DNA of 64,000 nt from Eledone cirrhosa (Eukaryota): assembly GCA_964016885.1 (NCBI GenBank), contig OZ024740.1, forward strand, positions 256,370,001 to 256,434,000, read 5' to 3'. The notes beneath the pieces were generated by a model. The model had not been told where the DNA came from, ran no database searches, and saw only the letters and a list, made by a program, of their open reading frames with translations. Made by a program: the position numbers and the translations under genes. Below are positions 2,369-36,094 of the stretch, in pieces. Every line of letters starts with the position of its first letter. Positions within the stretch are counted from its first letter, which is position 1.

Positions 2369-2581
2369 GAATGCCATGGTTGACGGAGGCTCGGCTCTGT
2401 AAGGTATAGTAATTTTTAACCGTTAAAACAATTGTAAATTGTTTAAAACTTGAACCAAATTGTTGATAAAGACACCCTCCTCCTCGTGAGAGGGGTCTTT
2501 CTGTCCGTTATTTGGCCCTTCGGGGTTAAATAGCCAGTTATTGGGGTTTTGTACCCAAAATTTCATTTTAAACAAAAAAAC

Positions 2582-4681
2582 ATGGCTACCAAAAAAAAAA
2601 AATTTCATACGTCACTCCCACTCATTCCGTCTTCTTCTTCCTCAATCATCACTACAGGAGAGAGAAGATTGTCTCTCTCCCTCCCTTCTTTAAATGTGTC
2701 TCTCTCCCTACCTTCTCTTTCGCAAGCGACGAAAGAAAAGAAAAGTCTCGTGCAAAGCGTGCAAGGTTTCTCCACGACGACGACGACAGCGACGAAACAG
2801 GTGTGCGGGAAATACGAAAACCCAGTTCATTCGTCTGACGTCAGGAATAATAGCAGTAGCAGCCGTAATAACAACAGCAACAGTGACAATGAAAACAACA
2901 GTAGCAGCCGCAACAGCATCACCAGCAGCATAAACAACAACACCATTAGCAGCAGCAACACCAACAACAACCACAGCAACAGCGGCGGAGGCAGTAGTCG
3001 TAGTACCTGCAGCAACAACAAAAGTACCAGCAGCTCTGACGACAACAACAACAGCAGAGAAAAACCAATCTCATTTGCAGGTATTGCGAAAAACCTGGAA
3101 ACAATCCTCATAACAAATGAGGAATTAGAGGAAGCGAAGAAGATGGTGACAAAGAACGGACACCGAGCAATCTGCAAGGCAGCGAAAAATTTTTTCGAAA
3201 CCCAAGAGCACTGTACGGTCACGTACCGTACAGTAAGTACAAAATCCCGTAGGGTGGAAAGAGCCACAGAGGCCCAAATACAAAAAGCCTTGGGGTCTGT
3301 GTGGCAGAGGAAAACGCACATCACCCGAGGCAAAAAATACGCCACCGTAGACGTACTTTTTGCCACACCCCAGGAGGCAAAGGCCCAATCAGTAGTGACC
3401 CTAAGGAGCGAGGAAATGGTGTTGGTGCCCTCCTACTGCGGGCAAAAAATTGTGAGGGTCAAACTGACCCACGTCCCCCCCGGAATGACCCCTTCTTGGC
3501 TGGCCGCGTCTGTCCTCGTCGGAATCGAGGACAAAACAACTGTACTGCAAGTACAGAAAAAAGTAAGAGAAGATTGGGTCGGCTCCTCCATTGAGATGCT
3601 AATACAAACCAACCAGGAGTGCATCGAAGCTATCCCGGATGTGATAGACTTCGATAACGGCACTCAACTGCCCATAAGTGTTGAGGGCAAACGCCCGAAA
3701 TGCTTTCGCTGTGGATCGAAGACTCACCTCAGGGCCTTCTGCAACGAGAAGACCCTGAGAAAGGAGAAAACCCCCCTCCTCCCGAATCCGGTTCCACGGC
3801 TACCAGCAACAGGACAAGCGGCAACCAGGAACGATAGGTCCGTGGCACCCATACCCACTCCACGGAAATCAAAGACAGCAGCAGCAGTGGAAATATTAAC
3901 AACAACAACAGCAATACCAAATGCAGCTGCAACAGAGACTCCAGTGCAAACATCACCAACAACAACAAGTGAAAGAGTGGAGCTGGTACCCCTCCCCGAC
4001 CTTACAGAATCAGACATGGAGTGTGAGGTGGGAGAGGGATGGCAAAAGGTCTCAAGAAGGCACAAACGCAGAAGCAGCGCATCGTCGCCTTTGAAAAGGG
4101 AGGAAAGAAATGAGAAAAGGGTAAAGTCTACTGCAAAGAGACCCACAGCAGCAACACCACCAACACCATCACCACCCACACCAGCACCACCATCACCACC
4201 GGCGACAACCCCACCGCCAACAACACCTTCAACACCACCACCACAAGCACCAACATCGCAAACACAACAACAAAACACACACACCCAGCAACAACGACAA
4301 GAAAATAGCAGAACCACACCCCACCCCCAGAAAAACAAATGCACGGCAATAAACACACACAACAAGAAACTAATGACTTACATAATTGAACACACAGACA
4401 TTTCACAACAGGACTACATAATACCAGCACCAATCAAAACGCCAACTAACATAAGACTGCTAAAAATAGCACAGAAACAATACACAAACATTAAAACGAA
4501 ATTTCCCAACGCAGTTGGTGATTTCAGGGACCTAGGAGGAACCATTAATCGAAGAGTATATTCAGACATTCTCTTAGAAGAGCCGACGACCAGCCGAAGG
4601 GACGATTCAACGGTCCCTTCACCAGACGATCAAGTGAAAAGGGATGTAAAAACCATCCCTCCTCTACCAAAAATACGGTAA
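2582..4681 (+). CDS. LINE ORF1p (gag-like nucleic-acid-binding protein with CCHC zinc knuckle)
   Basis: First ATG at 2582 (the track start at 2549 is a TTG). CFRCGSKTHLRAFC fits CX2CX4HX4C; Asn/Ser-rich N-terminal and Pro/Thr-rich C-terminal low-complexity regions; homologous ORFs in copies 3, 5 and 6. Confidence 0.9.
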   Translation: MATKKKKFHTSLPLIPSSSSSIITTGERRLSLSLPSLNVSLSLPSLSQATKEKKSLVQSVQGFSTTTTTATKQVCGKYENPVHSSDVRNNSSSSRNNNSNSDNENNSSSRNSITSSINNNTISSSNTNNNHSNSGGGSSRSTCSNNKSTSSSDDNNNSREKPISFAGIAKNLETILITNEELEEAKKMVTKNGHRAICKAAKNFFETQEHCTVTYRTVSTKSRRVERATEAQIQKALGSVWQRKTHITRGKKYATVDVLFATPQEAKAQSVVTLRSEEMVLVPSYCGQKIVRVKLTHVPPGMTPSWLAASVLVGIEDKTTVLQVQKKVREDWVGSSIEMLIQTNQECIEAIPDVIDFDNGTQLPISVEGKRPKCFRCGSKTHLRAFCNEKTLRKEKTPLLPNPVPRLPATGQAATRNDRSVAPIPTPRKSKTAAAVEILTTTTAIPNAAATETPVQTSPTTTSERVELVPLPDLTESDMECEVGEGWQKVSRRHKRRSSASSPLKREERNEKRVKSTAKRPTAATPPTPSPPTPAPPSPPATTPPPTTPSTPPPQAPTSQTQQQNTHTQQQRQENSRTTPHPQKNKCTAINTHNKKLMTYIIEHTDISQQDYIIPAPIKTPTNIRLLKIAQKQYTNIKTKFPNAVGDFRDLGGTINRRVYSDILLEEPTTSRRDDSTVPSPDDQVKRDVKTIPPLPKIR

Positions 4682-4716
4682 GTGGTCTTTCCCATCTTTT
4701 CCACTCTATTTTAAAC

Positions 4717-7700
4717 ATGACCTCACTCAGAATAGGCAGCATAAATGCGCGTGGCTTGGGGTCGTCATGGAAGCAGGGTCACCTGCTCAACGACCTCAGG
4801 TCACTAAACATAGATGTAGTGGCCATCAGCGAGACCAGAATCTCCGAAGCACGGGCCTTCGCACCGATCTTCGGCGGCTACGATGTGTACGCATCTCCCA
4901 GCCGTCCTGGATCCGGTGGAGGAGTTGCTGTACTTTTTCGGAGAGGTTTGGATCTCGCCATACGGGCCATCTTCCTGGACCCAGAGGGTAAGCTGGTGGT
5001 GCTGGACGTGACCAGCGGAGACGGGCAAGCTTTCAGGCTAGTGGCCGTCTATGCCCCGACAGGAGCAGGGCGGCCTGATTTCTTCCGGCGTCTGGAGACC
5101 TTTCTTGGAACGTCCCGCTCTTTAGTGTTAGTGGGCGACTGGAACGGGATCTTAGATGCACGCTGGGACTGTGTGGGATTAGCGGATAGGGGTGGAGGGT
5201 GCAAGAGCCTCACCAACCTGCTCAGGCGTTTTGAACTGTCTGACAGGTACCGATTGGATTTCCCGAATGTGCCAATGTGGACTTGGACAAACCGCATAGG
5301 GTCATCCAGATCATATCTAGATAGAGTATTTTGTAGGGAAATAGATAGGTCTAGCATAGGCTGTCCACAATTCAAGATAGTCAGCTACACGGACCACAAA
5401 TTCGTGATCTGTGTGCTTGACTTAGATAGGCTTCATAGACGAGGACCCGGCTACTGGAAGCTAAACGCGTCCTTACCAGCGCGCAAGGCCTACAGAGACC
5501 GGATTAGCGAACTAGTTAAGCGGGCGTTGACGGGGGCCATCGTCAACAACAAGTGGTGGTTTGCTCTGAAAAGAGCGATTAGAATAGAATCGATTAGGTT
5601 TAGTAAGGCTTTAGCAATAGAGAAAAATAGAGCAGAGGGAGAACTAGTTAGAAAATTAGACGAGGCGCTTAGCAAAGGCATTGCGACCGACGTGCTTGCG
5701 GCGAAATTGGCCCTTGACCAATTCTTCAATGCAAAGCACGAAGGCTGCGTTGTCAGAGCTAGGGTGCGTGCTCTCAGACACGAGGGGACGAAAGCCGTTC
5801 AATGGGCCCGAGTGGCGGAGGCGCGTCGTGGCAACAAAGCCACGATCCGGTCTTTGGTGGACCACGACGGGCGCATGCTACTCGATCCCGGGCAAATGTG
5901 TGAAACTTTTCAGCGACACTTCGCTCAGCTGTTCGGGGGCAGCGGGGGGCCGGGTAGAGGGATGGACTTTAGTGTCTACCTCGACGGGCTGCCGCGGCTC
6001 TCGGCCACTGAGGCGAGGTGTTGCGAAAAGCCGATAACAGCCGCTGAAGTACGGGAGGCAATGACTGGCTGCACAAGGGGTAAATCGCCTGGTTTGGATG
6101 GTCTGCCCTATGAACTTTACGTACAGATGCCAGACTTGTTCGGAGGCCTCTTGGCGGACGTCTACTGCAACTGGCAACAGAACGGGAGAATTCCCAGTTC
6201 TGTGAGCCGAGGAGCGGTGGCACTGCTGAGAAAGGATCCGAACAAGGGGGATAACATAGACAATTTCCGGCCCATAACTCTGCTAAACACAGAGTTTAAG
6301 ATTTTGGCCAAGGTGCTAGCAAAGAGGTTGGCGCTTGTCGTTGGTGGTCTGGTGGGAGAGGCGCAGACATGCGCCATTCCCGACAGATCCATCCACGACA
6401 ACCTCCACCTCATGCGATACATCGTAGAGAGGGTAGCTAGGGAACCTGGCACGGGTGGGTCCTTGATCAATTTAGATCAGTCGAAAGCTTTCGATAGGGT
6501 CGACCATCGTTACCTAGCGGCAGTCCTGAGGGCGGCTGGCTTTGGGCCCGTCTTCAGAGGCTGGATCGCTGCCATGCACAGCGACATCTGCTCTGTGGTG
6601 AGAGTGAACGGTCACCTGTCGGAACCGTTCAACATCATGCGCTCGGTCCGCCAAGGATGTCCCCTCTCGTCCCTCTTGTACGTATTGACTCTCGAGCCAT
6701 TACTGCACAAACTGGAGACGTTGAGGGGAGTCCCGCGCGAACTAGGATGCGGAAGATCCGTGTCAGCATATGCGGACGATGTCACCGTAGTGGTGTCGAA
6801 CGCCAAACACATCGAGGCGATCGGCACTACACTAAGAGAATACGAAGCGGTGACAGGAGCAATGATCAACCAGGAAAAGTCAGTGGGCCTGCAGCTCGGC
6901 ACCTGGAGAGGCAGGTCCATGCCGTCCAACAGCGTCGTCGGGCGCTGGACGGACGGACCGGTTAAATTGCTAGGGGTCTGGTTCGGTCCGGACCTCCAGA
7001 CGGACAAAAACTGGGACGAGGTGACGAGCAGGGTGGCTTCTCTCACCCAGAAATGGGCGGAGAGGAAGCTATCCCTGAAAGGTCGAGCGGAGGTGGCTAA
7101 CGCGTACATCGCGTCTGTCATCTGCTACCGCCTAACCGTCGTACCTTGTCCTAAGCCTCGCCTGACTGCGCTGGAGCGTTTGCTCTTTCGCTTTTTGTGG
7201 AAGGGACGTGCTCCGATGGTCAGGCGGTCCATCTGTTGTCAACACCCGCTACGTGGAGGGCTGGGCATGCCGTGGCTGATGATGCGCAGGCACGCGCTCA
7301 GGCTACGACATCTCCACCTCTTCCTCGACGGTGATCAGGTGTGGTCGCCGTTTGCTAGACGCGTTTTTCCCCAGCTCGTTTCCTTGACGGAGCTGCAGTC
7401 CTGGGTCAAGCGAAGACCGAGAGGGAGCGCCTGGAGACTGGAATGTCTTCAGGCGCTCACAGCCCTCGACCAATCGGGCAATGTGATCGGTGGAAACTCC
7501 ACCTCGGCGTTCTATAGAGGATTAGTGGAGGGGAAGAGCGACGACGTACTTGGGGAAACTCTAGGCGTCGACGAAAATCAACTAGCCAATCTCTTCGGAA
7601 GAACTTTCGGGCCAGGGCCTATGGACAACTTCCAGAAATCTCTGGCCTGGCAGTGCTACCGAGGAGCCTTGCCAGTTCGGGATAAACTCTACAGGCATGG

Positions 7701-8136
7701 AGGTGCCGTCAGCCGGGCATGTCCGAGATGCGCGCAGGGCGACGAAACCGTCCTGCACGCACTCGTCCAGTGTCCGAAAATTGCTGACTTGTGGGTTTAT
7801 GTCGAACACCTGCTGTCGCGTTTAGGACGGATCCAGCTATCATCTGAGTCCATCGTGAGGATTGCCCCGCCCTCCTCCTTTAGCCGGGAAGGGCAGGCAG
7901 TTTTTATCTGTCTGGTGGCCATGGCGAAAGAGATAGTATGGTGGACACGTTTGAAAGGGCTGAAGACGAGCACTTACCTCTTCGGTGATGCTCTGATTGA
8001 CTTTTTCAAATTTCATTTGAAAAGGAAAATCAGAGTAGAGAGGGAAGTGCTCTCTTCCCAGCATTTTGTTGAAAGATGGGTGAGAGAAGCAAGAATGGCC
8101 CGAGTGAATGGGCCGACTCTGAGTATATATCTGTAA
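4717..8136 (+). CDS. LINE ORF2p: APE endonuclease + reverse transcriptase + C-terminal Cys/His finger (L1/Tx1 clade)
   Basis: APE motifs SINARG, ISET, VYAP, GDWN, LDRV, TDH. RT motifs KSPGLDG, FRPITLLN, DQSKAFDRV, VRQGCPLS, YADD. C-terminal CPRC..ETVLHALVQC. Confidence 0.97.
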   Translation: MTSLRIGSINARGLGSSWKQGHLLNDLRSLNIDVVAISETRISEARAFAPIFGGYDVYASPSRPGSGGGVAVLFRRGLDLAIRAIFLDPEGKLVVLDVTSGDGQAFRLVAVYAPTGAGRPDFFRRLETFLGTSRSLVLVGDWNGILDARWDCVGLADRGGGCKSLTNLLRRFELSDRYRLDFPNVPMWTWTNRIGSSRSYLDRVFCREIDRSSIGCPQFKIVSYTDHKFVICVLDLDRLHRRGPGYWKLNASLPARKAYRDRISELVKRALTGAIVNNKWWFALKRAIRIESIRFSKALAIEKNRAEGELVRKLDEALSKGIATDVLAAKLALDQFFNAKHEGCVVRARVRALRHEGTKAVQWARVAEARRGNKATIRSLVDHDGRMLLDPGQMCETFQRHFAQLFGGSGGPGRGMDFSVYLDGLPRLSATEARCCEKPITAAEVREAMTGCTRGKSPGLDGLPYELYVQMPDLFGGLLADVYCNWQQNGRIPSSVSRGAVALLRKDPNKGDNIDNFRPITLLNTEFKILAKVLAKRLALVVGGLVGEAQTCAIPDRSIHDNLHLMRYIVERVAREPGTGGSLINLDQSKAFDRVDHRYLAAVLRAAGFGPVFRGWIAAMHSDICSVVRVNGHLSEPFNIMRSVRQGCPLSSLLYVLTLEPLLHKLETLRGVPRELGCGRSVSAYADDVTVVVSNAKHIEAIGTTLREYEAVTGAMINQEKSVGLQLGTWRGRSMPSNSVVGRWTDGPVKLLGVWFGPDLQTDKNWDEVTSRVASLTQKWAERKLSLKGRAEVANAYIASVICYRLTVVPCPKPRLTALERLLFRFLWKGRAPMVRRSICCQHPLRGGLGMPWLMMRRHALRLRHLHLFLDGDQVWSPFARRVFPQLVSLTELQSWVKRRPRGSAWRLECLQALTALDQSGNVIGGNSTSAFYRGLVEGKSDDVLGETLGVDENQLANLFGRTFGPGPMDNFQKSLAWQCYRGALPVRDKLYRHGGAVSRACPRCAQGDETVLHALVQCPKIADLWVYVEHLLSRLGRIQLSSESIVRIAPPSSFSREGQAVFICLVAMAKEIVWWTRLKGLKTSTYLFGDALIDFFKFHLKRKIRVEREVLSSQHFVERWVREARMARVNGPTLSIYL

Positions 8137-8396
8137 ACTAAAGGTGGAAAACTGGGAGAGGGCACTTGCCTTGGTGGTCAGGGTCATTGTGGCTTTTTAC
8201 TGGGCTTTCTCCACAAATGTCCCTCCGAAGTCTCCCCCCTATTGGGGAATTTTTCATTGTTATTTTCATTGTTATTTTTGTTACATCCTCTGTTTTTGTT
8301 TTTTTACACGCAGAAATGCCCATTTGTACCGTCCTGCATTGTCCTGCACTGTCCTTAATGTCTACTTTATGTAAACCCTTGTGGTTAATAAAGAAA

Positions 8397-8700
<304 letters not shown>

Positions 8701-11700
8701 GGAAGGTGAAGCAACTCTTCTTATCGGCTCCAGTTTTTTTCAACAGTATTCATCGATTTCAACCGTTCTTAACCTTTTATTCAAGTTTTAAACTTGATAA
8801 AGGTTTAGAAGAAGTGACCCACCTAATACAGGGGTTCACTTGTAAATAATACGGCACCCCTTTACGGGGTGTCGTATTATGTAAAAATTATTTGAAAGAC
8901 ATTTTTTCTTTCAAAAATGGATAACACAAAAAAGAGAGAGAGCGCTGTCAGACACACAGAGAGAGGGAGACTTTGTCAACATATCAACAAGACAGCGTTC
9001 CAGCGGAGGTAAATATAAAGAAAATATTACGAAGGAAAAGAGGAACAATATCATTTTTAATCATATTGTTACAGATTTAAAATTACCAAATATTTCTAAA
9101 ACAAACAACACCAACAATAACACCAACAACAACACCAACAACAACACCAACAATAACACCAACAAAAACACCATCAATAACAACAGCAACAACAAAAATA
9201 ACAGCGGTAAGGTCGAGAACGACAATAACAATGACAATAATAACAGCCACAACAACAATAATAGTAGGAACAGTATCAACAAAAACAACAATAATAACAA
9301 CAGCCACAATAACAGTAACAACAGCAACAGTATCAACGAAAACAACAACAATGACAACAATAACAGCAACAACAGTATCAACGAAAATAACAACAATGAC
9401 AACAATAACAGCAACAACAGTACCAACGAAAACATCAACAATGACATCGATACCTGTAACAGCGATCTCAGCACCAACAGCAAGACCAGTAGCGGCAGCA
9501 ATAGTGGTGCCGCTGAAAAAGGGACCACTTCTTTTACAGGTGTGGTCAGAAATATCGAGACAGTGTTAGTCACAGAGGAGGAGATGGCAGTCGCAAGGGA
9601 CATGGTGACAAGAAACGCCAATAGAGTTTCCCTGAAACCTCCACCCGATTTTTTCAAGGACCAGCAGTTACGGACGGTAACTTACGGCAATGTAAACAAA
9701 ATATCACGTCCAGTGGAGAGAGCCACGGAGGCTCAAATCCAAAAGGCCTTGGCGTGCGTCTGGGTGCGCAAAACCCACATCACCTGAGGAAAAAAATATG
9801 CCACGGTAGATGCACTTTTTGGCACCCCACAGGAGGCGAAGTCTCACTCTTAGGTAACCCTAAAGAGTGAGGAGATAGTTTTGGTGCCCTCCTACTGTGG
9901 GCAAAAAATTGTGAGGGTCAACGTGACCCAGGTCCCACCCGACGTGGCTATACCTTGACTGGCCGCGTCTGTCCTTGCTGGAATCGAGGACAGAACGACC
10001 ATGCTGCAAGTAGAGAAAATAGGGAGAGAGAACTGGTCAGGTATAGGCATGCAAATACTAATACAAACTGACCGGGAGTGTATCGAGGTTATCCCCGATA
10101 TCATAGACCTCAGGGAAGGACTCCAACTCCCTATGAGCGTGGAAGGAAGGCGCCCAAAATGCTATCTCTGTGGAACAAAGGGTCACCTCAGTGTCTTTTG
10201 TCCGCAGAAGACAGCGAAGAAGAAGGCCCCCCTCCTTACTATGCCTGGTCTGCTGCTACCAAGAGCAGGGCAGGCAACAAACGCAGAAGACTCTTCCACT
10301 GTGAGTAGGAGGGCAACGTCCGTGGCACCCATACAAAGGCCACGGACAACTAAAACAGCAGCAGCAGTGGCGGCAACACCAATAGCTACATTTGCAGTAT
10401 CTGCAGCAACAACAAAATAGCCGCAAAGGACTCCACTACCACCAAAGGCTGTAGAGCACATACCCCTCCCAGATGCCACGGAATCCGACATGGAGTCTGA
10501 GGCGGGAGTGAAGTGGCAAACGGTCTGCGACAAAAAAGAAAAAAGAAAAAAGAAAAAAGAAAAAAGAAAAAAGAAAAAAGAAAAAAGAAAAAAAGAAAAA
10601 AGAAAAAAGAAAAAAGAAAAAACCCCTTAGCGAAGGCAAACAAAGAGGGGTAAAGGCTGCAAGGTAACTCGCAGCAACGCCACTACCATCACCACCAACA
10701 ACCACCACCACAAACGTAGAATAGGCAGCATAAATGTACGTGGCCTGGGGTCATCTTGGAAGCAGGGCCACCTGCTTAACGATCTCAGGTCACTAAACAT
10801 AGATGTGGTGGCCATCAGCGAGACCAGAATTTCCGAAGCACGAGACTTCGCACCGACCCTCGGCGGTTACGATGTATACGCATCTCCCAGCCGCCTGGGA
10901 GCGGGGGCCTGAGTTGCTGTGCTTTTTCGGAGAGGCTTGGATCTTGCCATACGGGCCATTTTCCTGGACCTAGAAGGTAAGTCGGTTGTACCGGATGTGA
11001 CAGGCAGCGAAGGCAATGCTTTCAGGTTAGTAGCCGTCTACTACGTCCCAACAGGGGTAGGACGGCCAGATTTCTTCAGGCGTCTAGAGACCTTTCTTGG
11101 AACGTCCCGCTCTTTAGTATTAGTGGGTGACTGGAACGGTATCTTAGATGCACGTTGGGATTATGTGGGGAAGTAAATAATGGAGGAGGATGTAAAAGCC
11201 TCACCAACCTGCTCAGACGTTTTCAAATGTCTGACAGGTATCAACTGGATTATCCGAATGTGCCAATGTGGAAATGGGCAAACCGCAACGGGTCATCCAG
11301 ATCGTTTCTAGATAGGGTATTGTGTAGGGAAACAGATAAGGCTAGCGTAGGTTGTCCACAATTTAAAGTAGTCGGCTACTCGGACCACATATTTGTGATC
11401 TGTGATGTCGACTTAGATAGATTTCATAGGCAAGGATCTGGTTACTGGAAGCTGAACGCGTCTTTCCCGGCAAGCAAAGCTTACAGACACCGGATAAGTG
11501 AATTAGTTGAGCGTGCGTTGACGGGTGCGATCGTAAACAGCAGGTGATGGTTTACGCTGAAAAGGGCAATTAGAATAGAATCAATAAGGTTTAACAAAGG
11601 AGTAAAGATAGAGGTAAATAGATTAGAAAGCTAGAAGAGGCGTTTAGGACAGGCATCGCAACCGACGTGCTTGCGGCGAGATTGGCACTCGACCAATTCT

Positions 11701-14316
11701 TCAATGCAATGACAGAAGGTTGCGTTGTCAGAGCTAGAACGCGTGCACTGAGTGAAGAGGGGACAAAAGCTGTCCAATGGGCCCAGGTGGTAGAGGCGTG
11801 ACGTGGTAACAAAGCCACAATTCAATTCTTGCTTGACCAAAACGGGCACATGTTACTCGAACCCGAGCAGATGTGTGAGGCTTTTCAGCAGCATTTTGCT
11901 CAACTGTTTGGGAGAGGTGGCGGGCCAGTGCATACCTCGAGGGACTGTCGCAGCTCTCGACGACCGCAGTGCAGTATTGCGAAAAGCCGATAACAGCAGG
12001 TGAAATACGGGAAGCGATGTCTGACTTCCCGAGGAGTAAATCGCCAGGTTTGGATGGTCTGCCCTACGAGCTTTATGCGTACATGCCAGACTTATTCGGC
12101 GACTTCTTGCCAGATGTCTATTGCAACTGGCAGCAGAACGGGAGCATTCCAAGTTTTGTGAGCCGAGGAGCGGTGGCGCTGTTGAGAAAAGACCCGAAGA
12201 AAAGGGACGTTATAGACAACTTCAGACCCATAACTTTGGCCAAGGTGTTAGCAAATAGACTGGCGCTTGTCGTCGGTAATCTGATAGGAGACATGCACCT
12301 TTCCAGACAGATCCAATCACGACCACCTCCACCTCATGCGATACATCATAGAGAGAGAGTGGTTAAGGAACCTGGTACGGGTGGATCCCTGATCAACTTA
12401 GATCTATCTAAGACATTTAATAGGGTCGACCATCGGTACCTGGCGGCAGTCCTCGAAGCGGTTGGTTTTGGGCCCATTTTCAGGGGTTGGATCACTGGGA
12501 TGCATAGCGACATCTGCGCAGTTCATCTGTCACAGCCGTTCAGCATCATGCGCTCGGTCTGCCAGATTTGTCCCCTCTCGTCGCTCTTGTACGTATTGAC
12601 CCTCGAGCCGTTACTTCACAAATTGGAGGCGATGAGAGACGGCCCACGCGAACTGGGATGTGTGAGATCCGTATCGGCTCTCGCCGACGACGTCACCGTG
12701 GTGGTGTCAAGCACCGGAAATGTCCAGATGCTCGGCACCGCTCCCAAGGAATATGAAGCAGTGACAAGAGCAAAGTTAAACCAGGAAAAGTCGGTGGGCT
12801 TGCAGCTCGGCACCTGGAGAGGCAAGTACATTCCACGTGACAGAGTCGTGGGGGCATGGACGGAAGGACCGGTTAAATTGCTCGGTATCTGGTTCGGTCC
12901 GGACCTCCAGATGGAGAAAAGCTGGAGCGAGCTGACGAACAGGATGGCTTCTCTCACCCAGAAATGGGCCGAGAGGAAGCTGTTCCTGAACGGTCGGGCA
13001 GAGGTGGCGAATGCGTTCATCGCATCCGTTATCTGCTACCGCCTAAACTTTATGCCCTGCCCCGACCCAACTCTGACAAAAATAGAGCGCCTCTTCTTCC
13101 GCTTTTTATGGAAGGCACATGCTCCCAAGGTCAGACGATCCATCTGCTGTCAACACCCGTTGCGTGGAGGGCTGGGCGTGCCGTGGCTGATGATGCGTAA
13201 ACACGCGCTGAGGCTGCGACATCTCTGGTGCTCCTTGGAGGTGAACAGGTCTGGTCACCGTTTGCCAGACATGCTTTTCCCCAGCTCGTCTCATTAACGG
13301 AGCTGCAATCCTGGATGAGGAAAAACCGAGGAATAGCGCTTGGAAGCTGGAATGTCTCCAAGCACTCATAGCCTTCTACCAGCTGGGCACCAGTATCGGT
13401 GGAACATCCACCTCGGCGTTCTATAGAGGACTAGTGGAGGGGAAGTGTGACGACGTTCTCTGGGAAACCGTGGGCGTCGAAGACGATCAGCTGTTCGCTC
13501 TATTTCAAGAGAACTTTTATCCCGGGGCCTCTGGACAACTTCCAAAAATCCCTGTCCTGGCAGTGCTACCGGGGAGCGCTGCCGGTTCAAGATAAGCTCT
13601 ACAGGCGAACTACTGCTGTCAGCCGAACCTGTCCAAGATGCCACAGAGCGAAGAAACCATTGTGCACACACTCGTTCAGTGTCCGAGCATTGCTGACTTG
13701 TGGAGCTATGTTGAACATTTGCTGTCCCGTGTAGGTCGGATCCGGTTATCGACTGAATCCATTGTGCAGATAGCCCCGCCGTCCTCCTTTAAGGAGGAGG
13801 AATGGCAGGCAGTTTTTATTTGCCTGGTGGCGATGGCGAAAGAGATTATATGGTGGACAAGGATGAAAGGATTGAAGCCGGACACTATCCTCTTTGCGCG
13901 AATCCCTGATTAACTTTTTCAAGTGTCACTTGAAGAGGAAAATCAGAGTGTAGAGACAAGTGCTGTCTTCTAGTAAGTTTGTTGGAATGTGGGTAAAAGT
14001 GGCGAGTCTGGTCCGAGTGAACGGGCCCGCTCTGAGTATGCGCCTGTATACTGAGGATGGAAAACTGAGAGAGGGCGCTTGCCCTGGTGGTCAGGGTGGC
14101 CGTGGTCTTTTGTGTGCCACGAGTGATCCTTGGAAGATTCCCCTCTATTGGCGAATTTTTGTTGTTTGAATTTTTTTAAATATTCCTATCTTCTTGTTAT
14201 AATCTTTTTTACACGGCTAAAACCCTCATTGTATCGTCCTGTACCGTTCTGTGCCGTCTCTAATGTTTTTCTTCATGTTAGCTGATGTTGCCAATAAAGA
14301 AACCATTATTATTATT
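8701..14316 (+). mobile_element. Tx1/L1 LINE copy 3, near full length, decayed, ORF1 3' end and spacer missing
   Basis: Fragmented ORF1 (VERATEAQIQKAL, CYLCGTKGHLSVFC) and ORF2 (GDWN, KSPGLDG, LADDV); AATAAA plus (ATT)n at ~14293-14316. Confidence 0.93.
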
Positions 14317-14322
14317 CTCTCT

Positions 14323-14393
14323 AAATAAAGTACCAGTAATACACTGGGATAATTGCTGGCCTTGTGCCAAAAGTAGAAACAATTATTATTATT
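14323..14393 (+). mobile_element. 5'-truncated SINE with 18-bp target-site duplication
   Basis: Matches the 3' part of the 8499 SINE. ATTATTATTATTCTCTCT occurs at 14305-14322 and 14382-14399. Confidence 0.85.
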
Positions 14394-16139
14394 CTCTCTT
14401 CCCTTCTGTTCGTATTGACTCTCGACCCATTACTGCGGAAGCTGGAGCTTTTGCAGGGCATCCCGCTAGAACCGGGACGTGGAAAGGTGGTGTCGGCTTA
14501 TGCGGACGACATCACCGTGATGGCGTCGGACACCTCAGAAATCGAGGTGGTCGGCACCTTATTGAAGGAATTTGAAAGGTTAACAGGAGCCAAACTTAAC
14601 CCGGAAAAGTCGGCCGGCTTGCAGCTCGGAACCCGGAGAGACAAGCCCATGCCGTCCAACAACGTCGTGGGGCGCTGGACGGAAGGACCGGTAAATTCAT
14701 CGGGGTTTGATCGGACCAGACCTCCAGGTGGATAAGGATTGGGATGAGGTAACGAGCAGGGTAGCCAGTCTCACCAAAGGATGGGCTGGGAGGAAGCTAT
14801 CACTGAAATGTCGCGCGGAGGTGGCAAATGCATACGTCGCGTCCGTCATATACTACCGCCTCACAGTCGTGACTTGACCCCGTCTGCACCTCGTCAAGTT
14901 GGAACGGCTCCTCTTCAAATTCTTGTGGAGAGGACAAGTTCCGTTGGTGAGGTGGTCCATCTGCTGCCAGCAACCCTCTACGCTGAGGGTTGGGCATGCC
15001 GTGGCTAATGATGCGCAGACATGCGCTGAGGCTGCGACATCTCCAGATATTCTGCCTAAACGGTGAACAGGTGTGTTCGCCGTTTATCAGACGGGCCTTT
15101 CCGCCGCTCGTTTCTTTGACTGAGCTGCAGTCCTGGGTCAAGAAGCGACCGAGACTGGGTGACTGGCACCTAGAGTGTTGCCAGGCACTCACTGCCCTCT
15201 TCCAAGCAGGCAATGCGATCAGTGGAACTGCCACTCTCGAGTTCTATAGAGGATTAGTGGTGGACAAGTGGTGGACGCATTCGGAGGAGCTTTGGGCCTT
15301 GACGAAGTCGAACTGACCAGTCTGTTCCGGAAGACTTTCGAGCCGGGGACGAGAGTCAATTTCTAGAAATCCCTCGCTTTACAGTGCTACCGGGGGACAC
15401 TGCCGGTTCGGAATAAACTCTACAGGCACGGAAGTGCTGTCAGACGGACCTGCTCAAGATGCGCATAGAGCGACGAAAGCGTTCTGCACACACTCGTCCA
15501 ATGTTCGTGCATTACTGACTTGTGGAGATATGTCGAACAGCTACTGTCGCGTGTGAAACGGATCCGGCTTTCGACCGCGTCCATAGTGAAGATCGACCCG
15601 CCGCCTTCCTTTGGCCAGGAATGGCAGGCAATTTTCCTCTGTCTGATGGCAGTTGCGAAAGAGGTTATATGGTGGACCAGATTGAAAGGACTGAAGACAG
15701 ACACTTTTCTCTTCGGCCAATCCCTCATCAACTTCTTCAAGTTTCACCTGGAAAAGAAGGTGAGGGTGGAAAGAGAAGTGCTGCCCCCAGTACATTTGCT
15801 AAAAGGTGGATGAATGTGGCGTGAGTGGCCCGTGTGAATGGGCCTACTCTGACCAGGCTAGCTAACTTGAGGAGAGGGGGTCCTCTCCTTGGGTGCCCTA
15901 GAAGCGCAGGGTGGTTCAGGATTGGTGGGGTACATGAGCCTCCCCTGGGTCGTACCCCCCTATAGGGGAATTTATTTCGTTATATCTATGCGTATTTTAT
16001 TTTATATTTTTTATATCTTCATTGTTAAATTAGTCTTGCCTAATTGTAAACACCCATTGTCTCTGTCTTTGTATTGTCCTCTACATGCCGGCCCTTGTGG
16101 CCAATAAATTAAATCGTTATTATTATTATTATTATTATT
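14394..16139 (+). mobile_element. Tx1/L1 LINE copy 4, 5'-truncated within RT, same subfamily as copy 7
   Basis: AYADDITVM, LRHLQIFCLNGEQV and KIDPPPSFGQE are shared with copy 7; (ATT)n tail 16117-16139. Confidence 0.92.
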
Positions 16140-19100
16140 GGCGACCTACGTAGTAAATCGTATCATTGTGAGCTCGGCAAAGGTTTGTTATTTTCAGTTG
16201 TTCAAAATTGCCATTCATGGAAAATGTTATTGTTAATTGTATATAAGTGCACATACATTGTTATCTGAAAAGGACACCCAAAAAGATTGGGGCCTTGAGC
16301 CCAAAATTTAAACTTTTATAATTATCAAACAAAAAATTTTTCTTTGAAACATCATGGCTGACTCAGAGTCACTCCTTTCTCACAAACTAAAACCTCACAC
16401 CGACACCACCATTGTAAATATTACTACGTTTGCAACACTAAAAAAAATATAAGCAGTAGCAATATTTTAAATTTGTCTCAGGCAGACATTCATTTCCCGC
16501 CATTACCAATGACTGCAGGTGTTAAAGCCGCCACCACCACCAGCGCGATAACCGCCACCCGCACCACCACCACGACAACAGAAACAAAAGAAAAAAATAA
16601 ATTAACTCGTGATATCGAAATGAATTCAACCAAAATGAACTCTTCCACACCGAACACCACTGACGCCACCACCACCACAACTGAAGCTAAAATTAATAAT
16701 AACAAAAATAACGATAACAACAACAGCAACAATGACATTAAGAAAACCACCCTGAGTTTTGCCAGAGTAGCAAAACAGTGCGAAGCGAAGCATTTCAGGT
16801 AACTCAGGAGGGATTAGAAGAAGCCAAAAAAATGGTAAAGAAAGATGGGTACAGGGTCAGCCCCCCCCCCCACACACACCTAATAAAATGGAGCATCAGC
16901 GCCTATGCACCGTGTCTTATCGAACAATTAATATAAAATCGCGCCCAGTGGAACGGGCATCCGAGTCCCAAATCCCAAAAGCTTTGGGACATGTGTGGGC
17001 AAAAAGACCCCACATCAGACGTGGGCAGAAGTATGGAACCGTGGACGTGTTCTTTGAAACACCACAGGAGGCTAGAGAACACTCCATGGCCCCATTAAGA
17101 AGTGACGGCTTCACACTCGTCCCAAGCTATTGTGGCCAGAGACTCGTAAAGATCAGGGTCACCCACGTACCACCGGCCATCGAAATTTCCTGGTTAATAG
17201 CTGCCGTCCTCGCCGGCATCGAAGCCAACACCATCATAATCGAAATAGCGAAAGAAAAGCTGGAGAACTGGTCCGGATCTGGGATGGAGCTCCTGATCCA
17301 AGCGGACCAAAAAAGCATTGAGGAGATCCCAGAGGTAATAGACCTCACTGACGGCAGCCACCTCACCGTAACTGTCGAGAGCAGAAGGCCTAGGTGTGTC
17401 GTTTGTGGTGAAGGAACACACATAAGGGCTTTCTGCTCTGAGGCTAAAAGGTTGAAGCCACCTCTCCTACCCATCCCAGTGACTCAACCATCAACACCAC
17501 CAGCAGCAGAGATGGCAGCAACAACTGTAGCAGCAACAACAGAAGCAAATGTAACAGCAACAATCCCAGCAACAGTAGCAAAACCAACACCACCACCACC
17601 CAACGCGCCAGAACTAGCACCAGCCCCTACACCATCCACCACGCCACAACCAAAACTAACGCCTGTGGAAGATTTTCCACTCCCCGGCCTATCACAACTG
17701 GGGACAGATTGTGACGACGAGGAGTGGGAAACGGTATCAGGAAAAAAGAAAAAAAGAAACTAAAAAAGAAAGAAATTCTCTTCCTCCCTTTCCAAAAACA
17801 AAATACAGAGGGAAAAATATAAACTATCAAACAAAAAAGTTAGGACAGATATGCCACCATCCACACCAACCCCATCACGCCAAACACCAACACCATCACC
17901 ATCATTAACCCCAACAACACCATCACCAACACCAAAAAAGCGAAACAGAAAGAAACCCATAACAAACGCAAACAAAACAAAACAGCCAAAACGATACACA
18001 CTACACAGCATTAAATTTGAACAACAACCAATTATTACACTACATCCAACACAACACCAGCATCACAGAAAAAGACTACACAACAACCCAAAAGTTCACA
18101 CCATCTCCACACATACAAATCACTCGCATCACACAGAAAACGTACATGGCACTAAAACAAAAATTCCCCAAAGACATCGGAGACTTCCGACAAGCACTCT
18201 CCAGGAGGATTTATAAGGACATCCTTCCTGGGGAGGCCACAAGCAGTGAAAAGGATGGAGAAACCGTCTTTCCTCTACGAGAAGAAAGGTAAGTGGTCTT
18301 TCCCATCTTTTCCACTCCATTTCAACATGACCTCACTCAGAATAGGCAGCATAAATGCGCGTGGCTTGGGGTCGTCATGGAAACAGGGCCACCTGCTCAA
18401 CGAACTCAGGTCACTAAACATAAATGTAGTGGCCATCAACGAGACCAGAATCTCCGAAGCACGGGCCTTCGCACAGATCTTCGGCGGCTACGATGTGTAC
18501 GCATCTCCCAGCCGTCCGGGATCGGGGGGAGGAGTTGATGTGCTTTTTCGGAGATGTTTGGATCTCGCCATATGAGCCATCTTCCTAGACCCAGAAGGTA
18601 AGTTGGTGCTGCTGGACGTGACCAGCGGAGACGGGCAAGCTTTCAGGCTAGTGGCCGTCTATGCCCCGACAGGAGCAGGGCGGCCTGATTTCTTCCGGCG
18701 TCTGGAGACCTTTCTTGGAACGTCCCGCTCTTTAGTGTTAGTGGGCGACTGGAACGGGATCTTAGATGCACGCTGGGACTGTGTGGGGCTAGTGGGTAGG
18801 GGAGGAGGGTGCAATAGTCTCACCAACCTGCTCATGCGTTTTGAACTGTCTGACAGGTACCGATTGGATTTCCCGAATGTGCCAATGTGGACTTGGACAA
18901 ATCGCATAGGGTCATCCAGATCATATCTAGATAGAGTATTTTGTAGGGAAATAGATAGGTCTAGCATAGGCTGTCCACAATTCAAGATAGTCAGCTACAC
19001 GGACCACAAATTCGTGATCTGTGTGCTTGACTTAGATAGGCTTCATAGACGAGACCCCGGCTACTGGAAGCTAAACGCGTCATTGCCAGCGCGCAAGGCC

Positions 19101-21933
19101 TACAGAGACCGGATTAGCGAACTAGTTAAGCGGGCGTTGTGGGGGCCATCGTCAACAACAAGTGGTGGTTTGCTCTGAAAAGAGCAATTAGAATAGAGTA
19201 CATTAGATTTAATAGGTTTAGCAATAGAGAAAAATACAGCAGAGGGAGAATTAGTTAGAAAATTAGGCGAGGCGCTTAGCAAAGGCATCGCAACCGACGT
19301 ACTTGCGGCGAAATTGGCCCTTGACCAATTCTTCAATGCAAAGCACGAAGGCTGCGTTGTCAGAGCTAGGGTGCGTGCTCTCAGACACGAGTGGACGAAA
19401 GCCGTTCAATGGGCCCGATTGGCGGAGGCGCGTCGTGGCAACAAAGCCACGATCCGGTCTTTGGTGGACTACGACGGGCGCATGCTACTCGATCCCGGGA
19501 AAATGTGTAAAGCTTTCTAGCGACACTTCGCCCAGCTGTTCGGGGGCAGTGGCGGGCCGGATCGAGGGATGAACTTTAGTGTCTACCTCGATGGACTGCC
19601 GCGGCTCTCGCCCACTGAGGCGGAGTGTTGCGAAAAGCCGATAACAACCGCTGAAGTACAGGAGGCAATGACTGGCTGCACAAGGGGTAAATCGCCTGGT
19701 TTCGATGGTCTGCCCCATGAACTTTACGTACAGACGCGCTACTGGTTAGGAGGCCTCTTGGCGGACGTCTAATGCAACTGGCAACAGAACGGGAGCCGAG
19801 GAGCTGTGGCGCTGCTGAGAAAGGATCCGAACAAGGGGGATAACATAGATAATTTCAGGCTCATAACTCTGCTAAACACAGAGTTGAAGATTTTGGCCAA
19901 GGTGCAAGCAAATAGGTTGGCGATTGTCGTTGGTGATCTGGTAGGAGAGGCGCAGACATGCACCATTCCCGACAGATCCATCCACGACATCCTCCACCTC
20001 ATGCGATACATCGTAGAGAGGGTAGCTAGGGAACCTGGCACGGGTGGGTCCTTGATCAATTTAGATCAGTCGAAAGCTTTAGATAGGGTCCACCATCGTT
20101 ACCTAGCGGTAGTCCTGAGGGCGGCTGGCTTTGGGCCCGTCTTCAGAGGCTGGATCGCTGCCATGCACAGCGACATCTGCTCTGTGGTTAGAGTGAACGG
20201 TCACCTTTCGGAACCGTTCAACATCATGCGCTCGGTCCGCCAAGGATGTCCCCTCTCGTCCCTCTTGTACGTATTGACTCTCGAGCCATTACTGCACACA
20301 CTGGAGACGTTGAGGGGGGTCCCGCGCGAACTTCCCGCGTGGAAGATCCGTGTCAGCATATGCGGACGTTGTCACCGTAGTGGTGTCGAACGCCAAACAC
20401 ATCGAGGCGATCGGCACTACACTAAGAGAATACGAAGCTGTGACAGGAGCAATGATCAACCAGTAAAAGTCAGTGGGCCTGCAGCTCGGCACCTGGAGAG
20501 GCATGTCCATGCCGTCCAACAGCATTGTCGGGCGCTGGACGGACGGACCGGTTAAATTGCTAGGTTCTGGTTCGGTCCGGACCTCCAGACGGACAAAAAC
20601 TGGGACGAGGTGACGAGCAGGGTGGCTTCCCTCACCCAGAAATGGGCGTAGAAGAAGCTATCCCTGAATGGTCTTGCGGAGGTGGCTAACGCGTACATCG
20701 GGTCCGTCATCTACTACTGTCTGACCGTCGTACCTTGTCCTAAGCCCCGCCTGACTGCGCTGGAGCGTTTGCTCTTTCGCTTTTTGTGGAAGGGACGCGC
20801 TCCGATGGTCAGGCGGTCCATCTGCTGTCAACACCCGCTACGGAGGGCTGGGCATGCCGTGGCTGATGATGCAGAGACACGCGCTCAGGCTACGACATCT
20901 CCACCTCTTCCTCGACGCTGATCAGGTGTGGTCGCCGTTTGCTAGACACGTCTTTCTCCAGCTCGTCTCCTTGGCGGAGCTGCAGTCCTGGGTCAAGCGA
21001 AGACCGAGAGGGGGCGTTTGTCGACTGGAATGTGACCGGTGGAAAGTCCACCTTGGCGTTCTATAGAGGATTAGTGGAGGGGAAGAGCGACGACGTACTT
21101 GGAGAATCTCTAGGCGTCGACGAAAATCAACTAGCCAATCTCTTCGGAAGGACTTTCGGGCCGGGGCCTATGGACAACTTCCAGAAATCCCTGTCCTGGC
21201 AGTGCTACCGAGGAACTTTGCCAGTTCGGGATAAACTCTACAGGCATGGAGGTGCCGTCAGCCGGGCATGTCCGAGATGCGCGCAGGGCGACGAAACTGT
21301 CCTGCGCGCACTCGTCCAGTGTCCGAGCATTGCTGAAATGTGTGTTTATGTCGAACACCTTCTGTCACGTGTAGGACGGACCCAGCTATCAGCTGAGTCC
21401 ATCGTGAGGATTGTCCCGCCCTCTTCCTTTAGCCGGGAAGGGCAGGCAGTTTTTATCTGTCTGGTGGCCATGGCGAAAGAGATAGTATGGTGGACACGTT
21501 TGAAAAGGCTGAAGACGAGCACTTACCTCTTCGGTGATGCCCTGATGAACTTTTTCAAATTTCATTTGAAAAGGAAAATCAGGGTAGAGAGGGAAGTGCT
21601 CTCTTCCCAGCATTTTGTTGAAATATGGGTGAGAGAAGCAAGTATGGCCCGAGTGAATAGGCTTACTTTGTGTATGTGTCTGTAAATTAAAGGTGGAAAA
21701 CTGGGAGAGGATACTTGCCGTGTTGGTCAGGGTCACTGTGGCCTTTTAATGGGCTTTCTCCACAAATGTCCCTCGGAAGTCTCCCCCTATTGGGGAATTT
21801 TTCATTGTTATTTTTTTATTACATCCTCTGTTTTTTTTACACGCATAAATGCCCATTTGTACCGTCCTGTATTGTCCTGTACTGTCCCTAATGTCTACTT
21901 TATGCAAACCCTTGTGGTTAATAAAGAAAGCAT
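16140..21933 (+). mobile_element. Tx1/L1 LINE copy 5, full length, decayed; ORF2 very close to copy 2 but ORF1 divergent
   Basis: ORF1 pieces 16473-18292 (CVVCGEGTHIRAFC); spacer and ORF2 DNA nearly identical by eye to 4678-8136, with scattered stops and frameshifts; AATAAA ~21920. Confidence 0.94.
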
Positions 21934-24900
21934 TTTTTTTCAACGTTTTACCTCATTTTCAACCGTTCTTAACCTTTTAAAGTTTTTAAATTTGATAAAA
22001 GTTTAGAAGAAGTGCCCACCTAATACAGGGGTTCACTCGTAAATAATACGGCACCCCTTTACGGGGTGTCGTATTTGTGTAAAAATATTTAAAAAAAAAA
22101 AATGTTCAACATGGATAACACAAGAAAGAGAGAGAGCGCTGTCAGACAGCACACAGAGAGAGGGAGACTTTATCAGCATGTCAACAAGACAGCGTTTTCG
22201 CGGAGGTAAATATAAACGAAAATATTACAAAGGAAAAGAGGATAGTTGCAGATTTAAAATTACCAAATATTTCTAACACAAACAACACCAACAACAACAC
22301 CAACAACACCACCATCAATAACAACAGCAACAACAAAAATAACAGCGGTAAAGTCGAGAACAACAATAACAAAAATAACAGCGGTAAGGTCGAGAACGAC
22401 AATAAAAATGACAATAACAACAGCCACAACAACAATAATAGTAGGAACAGTATCAACAAAAACAACAATAATAACAACAGCCACAATAACAGTAACAACA
22501 GCAACAACCACAACAGTACCAACGAAAACATCAACAATGACATCGATACCTGTAACAGCGATCGCTGCACCACCAGCAAGACCAGTAGCAGCTTTAGCGG
22601 CAGCAATGGTGGTGCTGCTGAAAAAGGGACCACTTCTTTTGCAGGTGTCGCCCGAAATATCTAAACAGTGTTAGTCACAGAGGAAGAGATGGCAGTTGCA
22701 AGGGCTATGGCGACAAGAAGCGCCAATAGAGTCTCCCTGAAACCTCCACCCGATTTTTTCAAGGACCAGCAGCTACGGACGGTGACTTACTGCACCGTAA
22801 GCAAGATGTCACATCGGGTGGAGAGATCCACGGAGGCTCAAATCCGAAAGGCCTTGGGGTGCGTCTGGGCACGCAAAATCCACATCACCCGAGGCAGAAA
22901 GTACGCCGCAGTAGACGTACTTTTCGCCACCCACCAAGAAGCGAAGTCTCACTCCTTGGAAACCCTAAAGAGTGAGTAGATAATCTTTGTGCCCTCCTTC
23001 AGCGAGCAGAACATTGTGAGTCTGCCACAAAAAACAAAAAAGGAAAAACCCCTTAGCTTCACCCTCCAAAAGCGAAAGCACACAAACAGTGGTAAAGGCA
23101 GCAAGGAAACTTGCAGCAACACCAGCACCATCACCATCACCACCACAAGCACCACCGCCAACAACAACCACACCACCACCAGCATCACCAAAAACACCAA
23201 CAACGCAAACAAAACAAAACACACACACCAAAGAGCAATAAGAAGAAAACAGCAATAAAATCACCCCTCCCCCCAAAACATGGCAAAAACAGCCATAAAC
23301 ATGGCAAAAAAAAGAACTCATACAATATATAAAGCAGCACACAGACATCACAAAAAAAAAACTACTACACCCCACCAACTCTCCCGACAAACATAAGCAT
23401 CATTGAAATCTCAATAGAACAGTACACACTTTTAAAACAAAAATTCCCCAACGAAGTTGGAGACTTCAGAGCGTCGGTTACCAAGAGGATATACTCTGAT
23501 ATCCTCTTGGAAACATCCATGACCAGCCAAAGGGATGGTTCTACTGTCCCTTCACCACACGATCAAGGTAAGTGACTCTTTCTCACTTGCCCCGTTTCTC
23601 ATCCAACATGGGCGTACTCAGAATATGCACTATAAATGCACGTGGCCTGGGGTCATCTTGGAAGCGGGGTCACCTGCTCAACGACCTCAGTTCACTAAAT
23701 ATAGATATCGTGGCCATCAACGAGACCAGAATCTCCGAAGTACAAGCTTTCGCACCGATCTTCGGCGGCTACGATGTATACGCATCTCCCAGCCGTCCAG
23801 GATCGGGGGGAGGGGTTGCCGTCATTTTTCGGAGAGGCTTGGATCTCGCCATACGGGCCATCTTCCTAGACCCAGAAGGTAAATCGGCGGTGCTGGACGT
23901 GACCGGCAGCGAAGGCAATGCTTTCAGGCTAGTAGCCGTCTACGCCCCAACAGTGGCAGGGCGGCCAGATTTCTTCAGACGTCTAGAAAGCTTTCTTGGA
24001 ACGTCCCGCTCTTTAGTGTTAGTGGGCGACTGGAACGGTATCTTGGATGCACGCTGGGATTTTGTGGGGCTAGTGGATAGGGGAGGAGGGTGCAAGAGCC
24101 TTACCAACCTGCTCAGACGTTTTGAACTGTCTGACAGGTATCGACTGGATCACCCGAATGTGCCAATGTGGACATGGACAAACCGCATCGGGTCATCCAG
24201 ATAGTATCTCGATAGGGTTTTCTGCAGAGAACTAGATAAGGCAAGTATAAGTTGTCCACAATTTAAAATAGTCGACTACACACACCACAGATTTGTGATC
24301 TGTGAGATCGACATAGACAGACTTCATAGACAAGGGCCCGGTTACTGGAAGATGAACGTGTCTTTCCCGGCGCGCAAAGCCTACAGAGACCGGATTAGCG
24401 TATTAGTTAAGCGGGCGGTGACGGGAGAGGTCGTCAACAACAGGTGGTGGTTAGCCCTGAAAAGGGCAATTAAAGTAGAGTCGATTAGGTTTAGCAAAGG
24501 ACTAGTGATAGAGGTAAATAGAGTAGAGGGAGAGCTAGTCAGAAAGCTAGAAGAAGCGTTTAGGACAGGCATCGCCACCGACGTGCTTGCGGCGAGATTG
24601 GCACTCGACCAATTCTTCAACGTAAAACACGTAGACTGCGTTGTCAGAGCTAGAGCGCGTGCTCTGAAACACGAGGGGACAAAAGCCGTCCAATGGGCTC
24701 GGGTGGCAGAGGCGCGACGTGGCAACAAAGCAACAATTCGGTCTTTGTCTGAACAAAACGGGTGCGTGTTGCTCGAACCCGAGCAAATGTGTGAAGCTTT
24801 CAGCAGCACTTTGCTGAACTGTTCGGGAGCAGCGGCGGGCCGGAACGGGGCATGGACTTCAGTGCATACTTCGACGGACTGCCTCGGCTCTCGACGACCG

Positions 24901-33030: not shown

Positions 33031-33039
33031 GATTAGCTT

Positions 33040-36042: not shown

Positions 36043-36091
<49 letters not shown>

Positions 36092-36094
<3 letters not shown>

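Follow-up and report, generated by a model that had tools for sequence, protein, structure and literature searches.

A mosaic LINE of Eledone cirrhosa with a doubled ORF1 end bounded by splice-site motifs, and RNA splicing as its possible origin

Lineages of long interspersed nuclear elements (LINEs) repeatedly swap their promoter and first open reading frame (ORF1) while keeping ORF2, and the mechanism of such 5' swaps is usually inferred, because the breakpoints leave no trace. Here we describe copy 2, an intact L1/Tx1-type LINE from Eledone cirrhosa (assembly GCA_964016885.1, contig OZ024740.1, positions 256,370,001 to 256,434,000 of the forward strand; these 64,000 nucleotides are called the window). 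Copy 2 belongs to a LINE array (Table 1), and its ORF1 end holds a short unit twice, as unit A of the copy-6 type and as unit B of the copy-5 type. Since this seam leaves a doubled and exactly bounded unit, splicing and template jumping become testable as origins of a swap wherever an octopus genome is assembled and RNA data exist.

For recombinant mouse L1 elements, three routes were proposed, namely DNA recombination, heteroduplex and template switch (PMC3600994). The available text on mouse L1 Tf/Gf (PMC3600994) and on tobacco SolRTE (10.1101/2022.11.04.512097) likewise describes a 5' untranslated region (UTR) plus ORF1 placed on the ORF2 of another lineage, repeatedly and in active elements. 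The breakpoints given there lie in ORF2 or a UTR, whereas the older seam of copy 2 is an out-of-register join on splice signals that duplicates a structured unit. A word search of these two sources found splicing mentioned in neither. Splice-derived 5' ends are described elsewhere: SVA_F1 and pt_SVA_D6 are SVA subfamilies founded by splicing, according to the accessible part of PMC6139936, and the mammalian mRNA/LINE-1 chimeras of PMC13174262, as excerpted, have 5' exons cut precisely at donors, while their acceptors are weak or, in some, cannot be recognised. In both of these systems and in copy 2, as far as the excerpts go, the new 5' module stops precisely at a donor, an acceptor cannot always be recognised, and the product amplifies as a subfamily. 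In copy 2 the end at a donor is seen by proxy, as copy 6 reads GTAAGT at the homologous base. Going by the same excerpts, the captured module is a host first exon or promoter in the known cases and the promoter plus whole ORF1 of another LINE in copy 2, where, unlike in those cases, the donor is built into the element. Spliced integrated retrotransposed elements (SpIREs) also stem from LINE RNA spliced before retrotransposition, as would copy 2. Those in the available text of PMC5860796 lose internal sequence and are mostly dead ends, whereas the copy 2 junction gains 43 nt, joins two lineages and founds an intact family. LINE mosaics and splice-captured 5' ends are both already known.

In Octopus vulgaris, 13 recently active L1-Tx1 families were reported (PMC13282606, accessible part). 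The octopus L1-Tx1 and Tx1 clade elements in the available sections of PMC13282606 and PMC4494074 resemble copy 2 in having two ORFs, an APE endonuclease, a reverse transcriptase and a zf-RVT domain in ORF2, and an RRM/CCHC-type ORF1; repeat-targeted insertion may be a further common feature. An ORF1-end hairpin, a donor and a chimeric junction are not described in those sections; octopus repeat consensus files could bear on the novelty of these features. Among titles and abstract openings, with few subscription journals and Repbase reports covered, neither a LINE-to-LINE ORF1 swap by splicing nor a hairpin-donor element was found.

Copy 2 is certainly a mosaic of ORF1 and ORF2 lineages, as a previous sequence-only reading of the window had proposed. 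Its identity to copy 5 is 59% over the ORF1 core and 95% over ORF2, while the values for copies 3 and 6 are 70% and 67% at the DNA level over the ORF1 core (67–73% across ORF1 for copy 6) and 80% and 83% over ORF2. Informative triplet sites flip at the seam: copy 2 agrees with copy 6 versus copy 5 at 15 versus 1 sites in unit A, 3 versus 9 in unit B, 0 versus 14 in the spacer and 102 versus 482 in ORF2. Copies 2 and 5 group at 100/100 in the ORF2 tree; in the ORF1 tree, the preferred partner of copy 2 is copy 3. The likeness of ORF1 to copies 3 and 6 stands insofar as these are the nearest copies, but it amounts to no more than the core values above, and the 5' UTRs (about 50% alike) are unalignable. 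The parents were also proposed to be array neighbours, which does not hold: copies 3 and 6 are distant ORF1 cousins, the junction is a family trait, and read-through splicing would need copy 6 ahead of copy 5, whereas copy 5 is the upstream one. Copies 5 and 6 are proxies only, and the exchange is ancestral to the copy 2 family. The broken copy 8 combines a copy-5-like ORF1 with the 3' UTR of the copy 1/2/5 group (77–79%, versus 52–61% to the others). The direction of exchange, with copy 2 as the probable recombinant, rests on unit B and copy 8.

Table 1 Features of copy 2 and of the LINE array, in window coordinates
Feature	Position	Strand	Description
LINE array	first 34 kb of window	one strand	head-to-tail
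Copy 1	to about 2332		3' part
Copy 2	2369–8398	+	intact L1/Tx1-type LINE; (ATT)n upstream at 2332–2368; own tail to 8497
Copy 3	8701–14305
Copy 4	14394–16116		5' truncated
Copy 5	16140–21930
Copy 6	21931–27133
Copy 7	27148–32453
Copy 8	about 33000–34300		broken element
ORF1 of copy 2	2582–4681	+	699 aa, one open frame; nearest copies 3/6
ORF1 layout			low-complexity N-terminus, then RRM-RRM-CCHC core (ZCCHC3-like), C-terminal domain
Unit A	4592–4634	+	copy-6 type ORF1 end; CAG 4591–4593 ahead; predicted hairpin 4596–4620
Unit B	4635–4677	+	copy-5 type ORF1 end, one base longer; predicted stem 4640–4660
GGTAAGT	4677–4683	+	5' splice-site consensus including ORF1 stop; second breakpoint versus copy 5, likely more recent
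Inter-ORF spacer	4678–4716	+	39 nt, pyrimidine-rich; with ATG 39/41 identical to copy 5
ORF2 of copy 2	4717–8136	+	1139 aa, one open frame; APE endonuclease, reverse transcriptase, zf-RVT
Acceptor-like site, 3' UTR	8289–8313	+	strong, T-rich, shortly before AATAAA; candidate donor partner
Copy 5 ORF1 end	18244–18294	+	CAG, 42-nt unit, predicted hairpin 18251–18271, AAG|GTAAGT; proxy 3' parent
Copy 6 ORF1 end	23524–23576	+	CAG, unit, predicted hairpin 23530–23552, AAG|GTAAGT then stop; proxy 5' parent
Copy 7 ORF1 end	28834–28885	+	most distant unit, predicted hairpin 28838–28862, AAG|GTAAGT

At the seam, unit A matches copy 6 (23525–23567) at 37 of 43 positions and ends at 4634, exactly where copy 6 continues with GTAAGT from 23568. 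Unit B matches copy 5 (18247–18288) at 32 of 43 positions with one extra base, and in copy 5 a CAG (18244–18246) stands directly ahead. These positions and the doubling of the C-terminal ORF1 motif (a 43-nt unit present twice) had been read correctly before. All unit pairs exceeded 3000 shuffles, the pairs B–copy 5 and A–copy 6 at p ≤ 0.0003. In copies 5 and 6, no further YAG follows this CAG before the ORF2 start, and its place is homologous in copies 2, 5 and 6, so that the doubled piece equals the exact interval from CAG to donor. Seam microhomology is limited to 2 nt (AG), and the seam is exact on both sides. Under a crude null model, a random out-of-register join gives this junction in 3–6 of 10,000 cases, and the donor side alone in 1.6–2.5%. 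An extra G was thought to keep ORF1 open. One extra base is indeed present in unit B, but it lengthens ORF1 by only about 11 codons, and a structure-based alignment makes an extra A as likely as an extra G.

The doubled unit could also have arisen within one lineage, by DNA slippage at AG or by exon repetition of the CAG-to-donor piece, with B diverging from A afterwards; the copy-5 lineage would then have gained B, spacer and ORF2 by a later in-register crossover, and copy 5 would be the ORF1 recombinant. The AG on both sides of the unit in copy 2 (4592–4593 and 4633–4634) and a GGG/CCC stem core that B has in common with A and copy 6 agree with such a history, the distances between copies 2 and 6 (ORF2 83%, ORF1 67–73%) could reflect plain vertical descent, and the long ORF1 branch belongs to copy 5. 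However, unit B shares only 25 of 43 positions with unit A, and as many with copy 6, compared with the 32 of 43 shared with copy 5, so simple tandem duplication, named before as a refuting outcome, fits poorly. Loop, linker length and 5' flank all place B with copy 5, its excess divergence would still need explaining, and copy 8, though broken, couples a copy-5-like ORF1 with the 3' UTR of the copy 1/2/5 group. We consider a duplication within one lineage unlikely.

The near-identity of spacer and ORF2 to copy 5 was confirmed, but it begins at 4677 and not at 4634. Unit B differs from copy 5 at 10 of 42 positions (9 with the majority letter at 4673 in the sequencing runs X2 and X7), while downstream of 4677 the 41-nt spacer has 2 mismatches and the four-fold sites of ORF2 differ at 7.1%; relative to these four-fold sites, the divergence of B is in excess (P 0.0006–0.002). 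In its similarity to copy 5, B exceeds all 19 ORF1 windows (21–29 of 42) and falls short of every downstream window free of indels (84 of 88 windows, each at 35 or more). B also contains a double-compensatory pair that retains the state of A and copy 6, unlike copy 5. As B is far less copy-5-like than spacer and ORF2, a second, later exchange is likely. In the simplest reading, B came from an older member of the ORF1 lineage of copy 5, and spacer plus ORF2 were re-exchanged later, in register, at GGTAAGT, which lies within the longest word common to both lineages here (an in-register 10-mer at the donor). Recursive AG|GT splicing was rejected for this second seam, as copy 2 has CG|GT and is without a pyrimidine tract.

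Half or more of the sampled words of copy 2 were present in 11 of the 24 runs listed (8 organisms, 7 studies), and 4 of these 11 runs were compared with copy 2 over 4340–8400; 15 of 2248 joints, 18 of 5697 loose ends and 40 of 808 differences were listed. In run X1, a 1412-nt contig with a depth of 77.7 spans 4340–4743, i.e. unit A, unit B, donor and spacer, without gaps and with a single difference; its depth is comparable to that of near-identical ORF2 contigs (91–114). Run X7, from another organism and another study, covers both units with its own substitutions, and no contig bridging A and B was found among the matches listed. The copy 2 junction is the consensus of a multi-copy family and not an assembly error. 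Repeat arrays are prone to misassembly, and the best-matching runs may stem from the source organism of the window itself, but an artefact, or a one-off decayed copy, is largely refuted and extremely improbable, given the two open ORFs, the X1 contig across the junction, the coverage in X7 and the compensatory changes held by B. A second X1 contig (depth 22.2) has two copy-5 features (G at 4673, a gap at 4709); it was not counted as a copy-5 subfamily, since G at 4673 is also the majority letter in copy-2-type contigs of X2. Over 4340–8400, run X1 has a depth of 78 in ORF1 that climbs to 10,290 in the last bin, a profile not shared by X2 and X7. This looks like RNA or many short 3'-end copies and was not used as evidence for expression.

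Folding predicted one hairpin per unit. In the ungapped alignment of the five units, 37 of 40 cells are paired in an 8-pair stem, four of the eight pairs show changes on both sides, and compensatory pairs occur across all five units, with three double-compensatory pairs in copy 7 relative to copy 6. The stem score was reached by 6 of 500 shuffles and was lower in every slid register; as the structure was derived from the same five related sequences, this evidence is good but not final. The distance from stem end to GGTAAGT is 14–15 nt in copies 2 (unit B), 5, 6 and 7, and that from the stem end of unit A to the seam is 14 nt. GGTAAGT-type motifs constitute the 5' splice-site consensus that pairs with U1. 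The motif ends ORF1 in all four intact junctions. Its letters translate to G-K-stop in copies 6 and 7 but to R-stop in copies 2 and 5, so conservation is at the nucleotide level and independent of frame, and the conservation of the donor claimed before is borne out. Six GGTAAGT were seen in the array against 1.6 expected, four of them at ORF1 ends. The C-terminal motif was seen in eight relatives. Two of these, both distant ORF1 proteins and one of them from Argonauta, have the endings DQGK and EGKS, which fit the letters of GGTAAGT, as judged at the protein level, and the other six differ.

Searches of metagenome contigs returned 80 related loci, all distant or partial. Of the 24 with an ORF2 start, 4 have GTAAG or GTGAG in the 100 nt that precede it, a rate close to the background of 0.13 per 100 nt, and the hairpin model had no match below E 0.27 in the 18 loci searched. 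Since neither donor nor hairpin appears in these distant non-octopod relatives, the element looks clade-specific. Found together at the ORF1 stop, the covarying hairpin and the frame-independent donor consensus suggest an RNA control element, whose likely role would be in ORF2 expression or RNA processing. Hairpin and GGTAAGT likely form a cis-acting RNA element, predicted to serve U1 binding and/or ORF2 translation and to have been under selection in both A and B. Structured RNA by the ORF1 stop with a near ORF2 start is also described for SART1, the L1 spacer and calicivirus termination upstream ribosomal binding sites (TURBS) in the accessible part of PMC5972666; the SART1 structure lies downstream of the stop, whereas the hairpin of copy 2 lies upstream and is coupled to a 5' splice-site consensus. 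A TURBS was rejected here, as the GGGA is paired in the stem, is preceded by A and not U, and is absent from copies 5 and 7. None of the 16 Rfam matches at E ≤ 1 over 1–36000 reached its gathering score or fell on a unit, and a spliced-leader RNA gene was dropped for lack of a match there.

Two further sites touch on the hairpin. The next-best match of its model lies at 7733–7757 in the 3' part of ORF2 (E 0.05), with weaker matches at the homologous place in copies 5, 1 and 7 (21282, 1678, 31787) and homologues in the 26471 region; it may be due to chance or mark a second structured site. In copy 5, an ATG in good context within the hairpin is in frame with ORF2 (18255–18329), and the 38-nt spacer keeps this frame open; the same ATG in copy 2 meets a stop at once.

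RNA splicing is the best single explanation of the older A|B seam, with a probability that we place close to even but short of it. The seam is exact at donor and CAG, and the only microhomology is the AG that any splice join leaves. In this older step, splicing would have attached the 5' half of one lineage (5' UTR, ORF1 and unit A), cut at its conserved ORF1-end donor, to the final CAG ahead of another lineage's ORF2, on a read-through transcript of two tandem elements or between two LINE RNAs spliced in trans; cis read-through and trans-splicing are indistinguishable here. The product RNA would carry unit A, then unit B, spacer and ORF2, and the ORF2 protein encoded by it would copy it back into the genome. 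A one-base gain would afterwards have fixed the ORF1 stop. The recent step (about 5% divergence) would have been a template switch guided by homology at the donor motif, and would have left the lineages of copies 2 and 5 with the same spacer, ORF2 and 3' UTR.

Several observations weigh against this two-step history. While the match of the seam to a donor and a YAG, on which a splice origin was first suggested, is exact, the copy 5 acceptor is only 35% pyrimidine and ranks 152 of 188 YAG sites, AG dinucleotides lie just upstream of it, and stronger acceptor sites are present inside the would-be intron. Read-through would have to cross an AATAAA. None of 34 gaps of at least 15 nt in the array copies is GT-AG as aligned (several are alignment noise), nor is any of the 15 joints listed, of 2248, in public contigs, and the X1 contig runs through the donor unbroken. 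The donor is predicted to be fully paired in copy 6, where it lies within another hairpin of 9 bp, and partly paired in copies 2, 5 and 7; it might therefore be masked or have a role other than splicing. Proxies with units only 76–86% alike stand in for both parents, and the null model for the seam is post hoc. A grouping of copy 2 with copy 5 is not rejected for ORF1 (approximately unbiased test, p 0.10). Finally, the differences between B and copy 5 fall 6, 4 and 0 on the three ORF1 codon positions (counted by hand), a pattern also compatible with one event after which B changed fast.

Other splicing schemes were discarded. An ORF1-only mRNA spliced from the donor to 8313 was dropped, as the 8313-type CAG is kept in copies 1, 2 and 8 only and absent from the other five. 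A 53-nt intron fusing ORF1 to ORF2 is in frame in copies 2 and 5 and not in copy 6. A deletion of the SpIRE type does not apply to a junction that adds a unit.

A template jump of the reverse transcriptase needs neither a functional acceptor nor read-through. Here copy-5-type RNA would have been copied through unit B and the enzyme would then have moved onto copy-6-type RNA, either at the common AG, onto an RNA that ended at the donor, or through the 5-nt word AGTGA with a later slippage loss of five bases. Template jumping is the favoured route for mouse L1 mosaics (PMC3600994) and was proposed for 5' switches of tobacco RTE elements (10.1101/2022.11.04.512097), in the text available for each, and the in-register seam at 4677 shows that such swaps happen here. 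The best common word, however, is the in-register 10-mer at the donor, which leaves no duplication. A jump at AG needs the coincidence of 3–6 in 10,000, and AGTGA, which is common out of register, takes 1–4% at most of the out-of-register weight if microhomology is favoured and requires an extra, exact 5-nt deletion. Including its AGTGA route, template jumping is the main rival of splicing and a serious one, although on balance we hold it to be doubtful. A deletion at the DNA level between adjacent full-length array elements, with the fused copy becoming a source element, seems still harder to sustain and quite improbable. Head-to-tail arrays of near-full-length elements are present and their copies carry many deletions with short or no microhomology, but the same positional coincidence as for the AG jump would be needed together with two intact neighbours, and this route was judged unlikely for mouse L1 in the accessible part of PMC3600994.

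If splicing did create the older seam, a broader, decidedly tentative view can be put forward. An octopod LINE clade may carry a built-in RNA switch at the ORF1 end, consisting of the covarying hairpin and a hairpin-masked 5' splice site, that turns promoter plus ORF1 into an exchangeable exon, with the spliceosome acting as a recombinase that founds new active LINE families in (ATT)n-tail arrays.

The ORF2 protein of copy 2 matched the Pfam families PF03372 (3e-14), PF00078 (1e-28) and PF13966 (7e-8), and the ORF2 homologues found carry no family names. ORF1 had no Pfam match and no match in word-index searches; it showed Atlas feature matches of 0.91–0.93 to CCHC and ZCCHC3 RRM clusters, and a C-x2-C-x4-H-x4-C motif is visible. 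We take this RRM/CCHC protein to be a Tx1-type ORF1. Four of six ORF1 relatives are named from Octopus sinensis, O. vulgaris, O. bimaculoides and Argonauta hians. Judged by its architecture and by PMC13282606, copy 2 is an L1/Tx1-type LINE with octopod relatives. No match to its sequence was found in viral contigs or bacterial genome contigs.

Both frames are open in copy 2 alone among the array copies, and copy 3 has lost its ORF1 end. Most copies end with AATAAA and an (ATT)n tail, and at this one locus several elements begin directly after the tail of the preceding one. The 5' UTR and ORF1 start are kept in five of the eight members (2369, 8701, 16140, 21931 and 27148), with four unrelated 5' UTR types among these five. 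Such 5' completeness is unusual for LINE insertions and hints at repeat-targeted stacking or a silencing cluster. Copies 3 and 6 are 84% alike in 5' UTR, ORF1 and ORF2 and only 72% in the 3' UTR, possibly through another module exchange. A piece with an (ATT)n tail lies between copies 2 and 3 (8498–8700), and its features suggest a short interspersed nuclear element (SINE). Between copies 3 and 4, a 3' fragment of this SINE-like repeat (14323–14393, 94% over 71 nt) is enclosed by an 18-nt direct repeat that resembles a target-site duplication.

A search for tRNA genes found none. Pieces of other retroelements are present at 36040–37427, 43474–44160 and 32542–32850, presumably Dong/R4-like and Penelope-like from their resemblance; a weak zf-RVT match (E 0.001) was obtained at 36597–37424. 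An 8-kb array with a 30–36-nt unit occupies 53670–61750, followed at 61800–63500 by a 1.7-kb array of triplet-derived units that is likewise stop-free; together they contain stop-free frames of up to 2700 codons. Both arrays are simple satellites, and their frames need not be genes.

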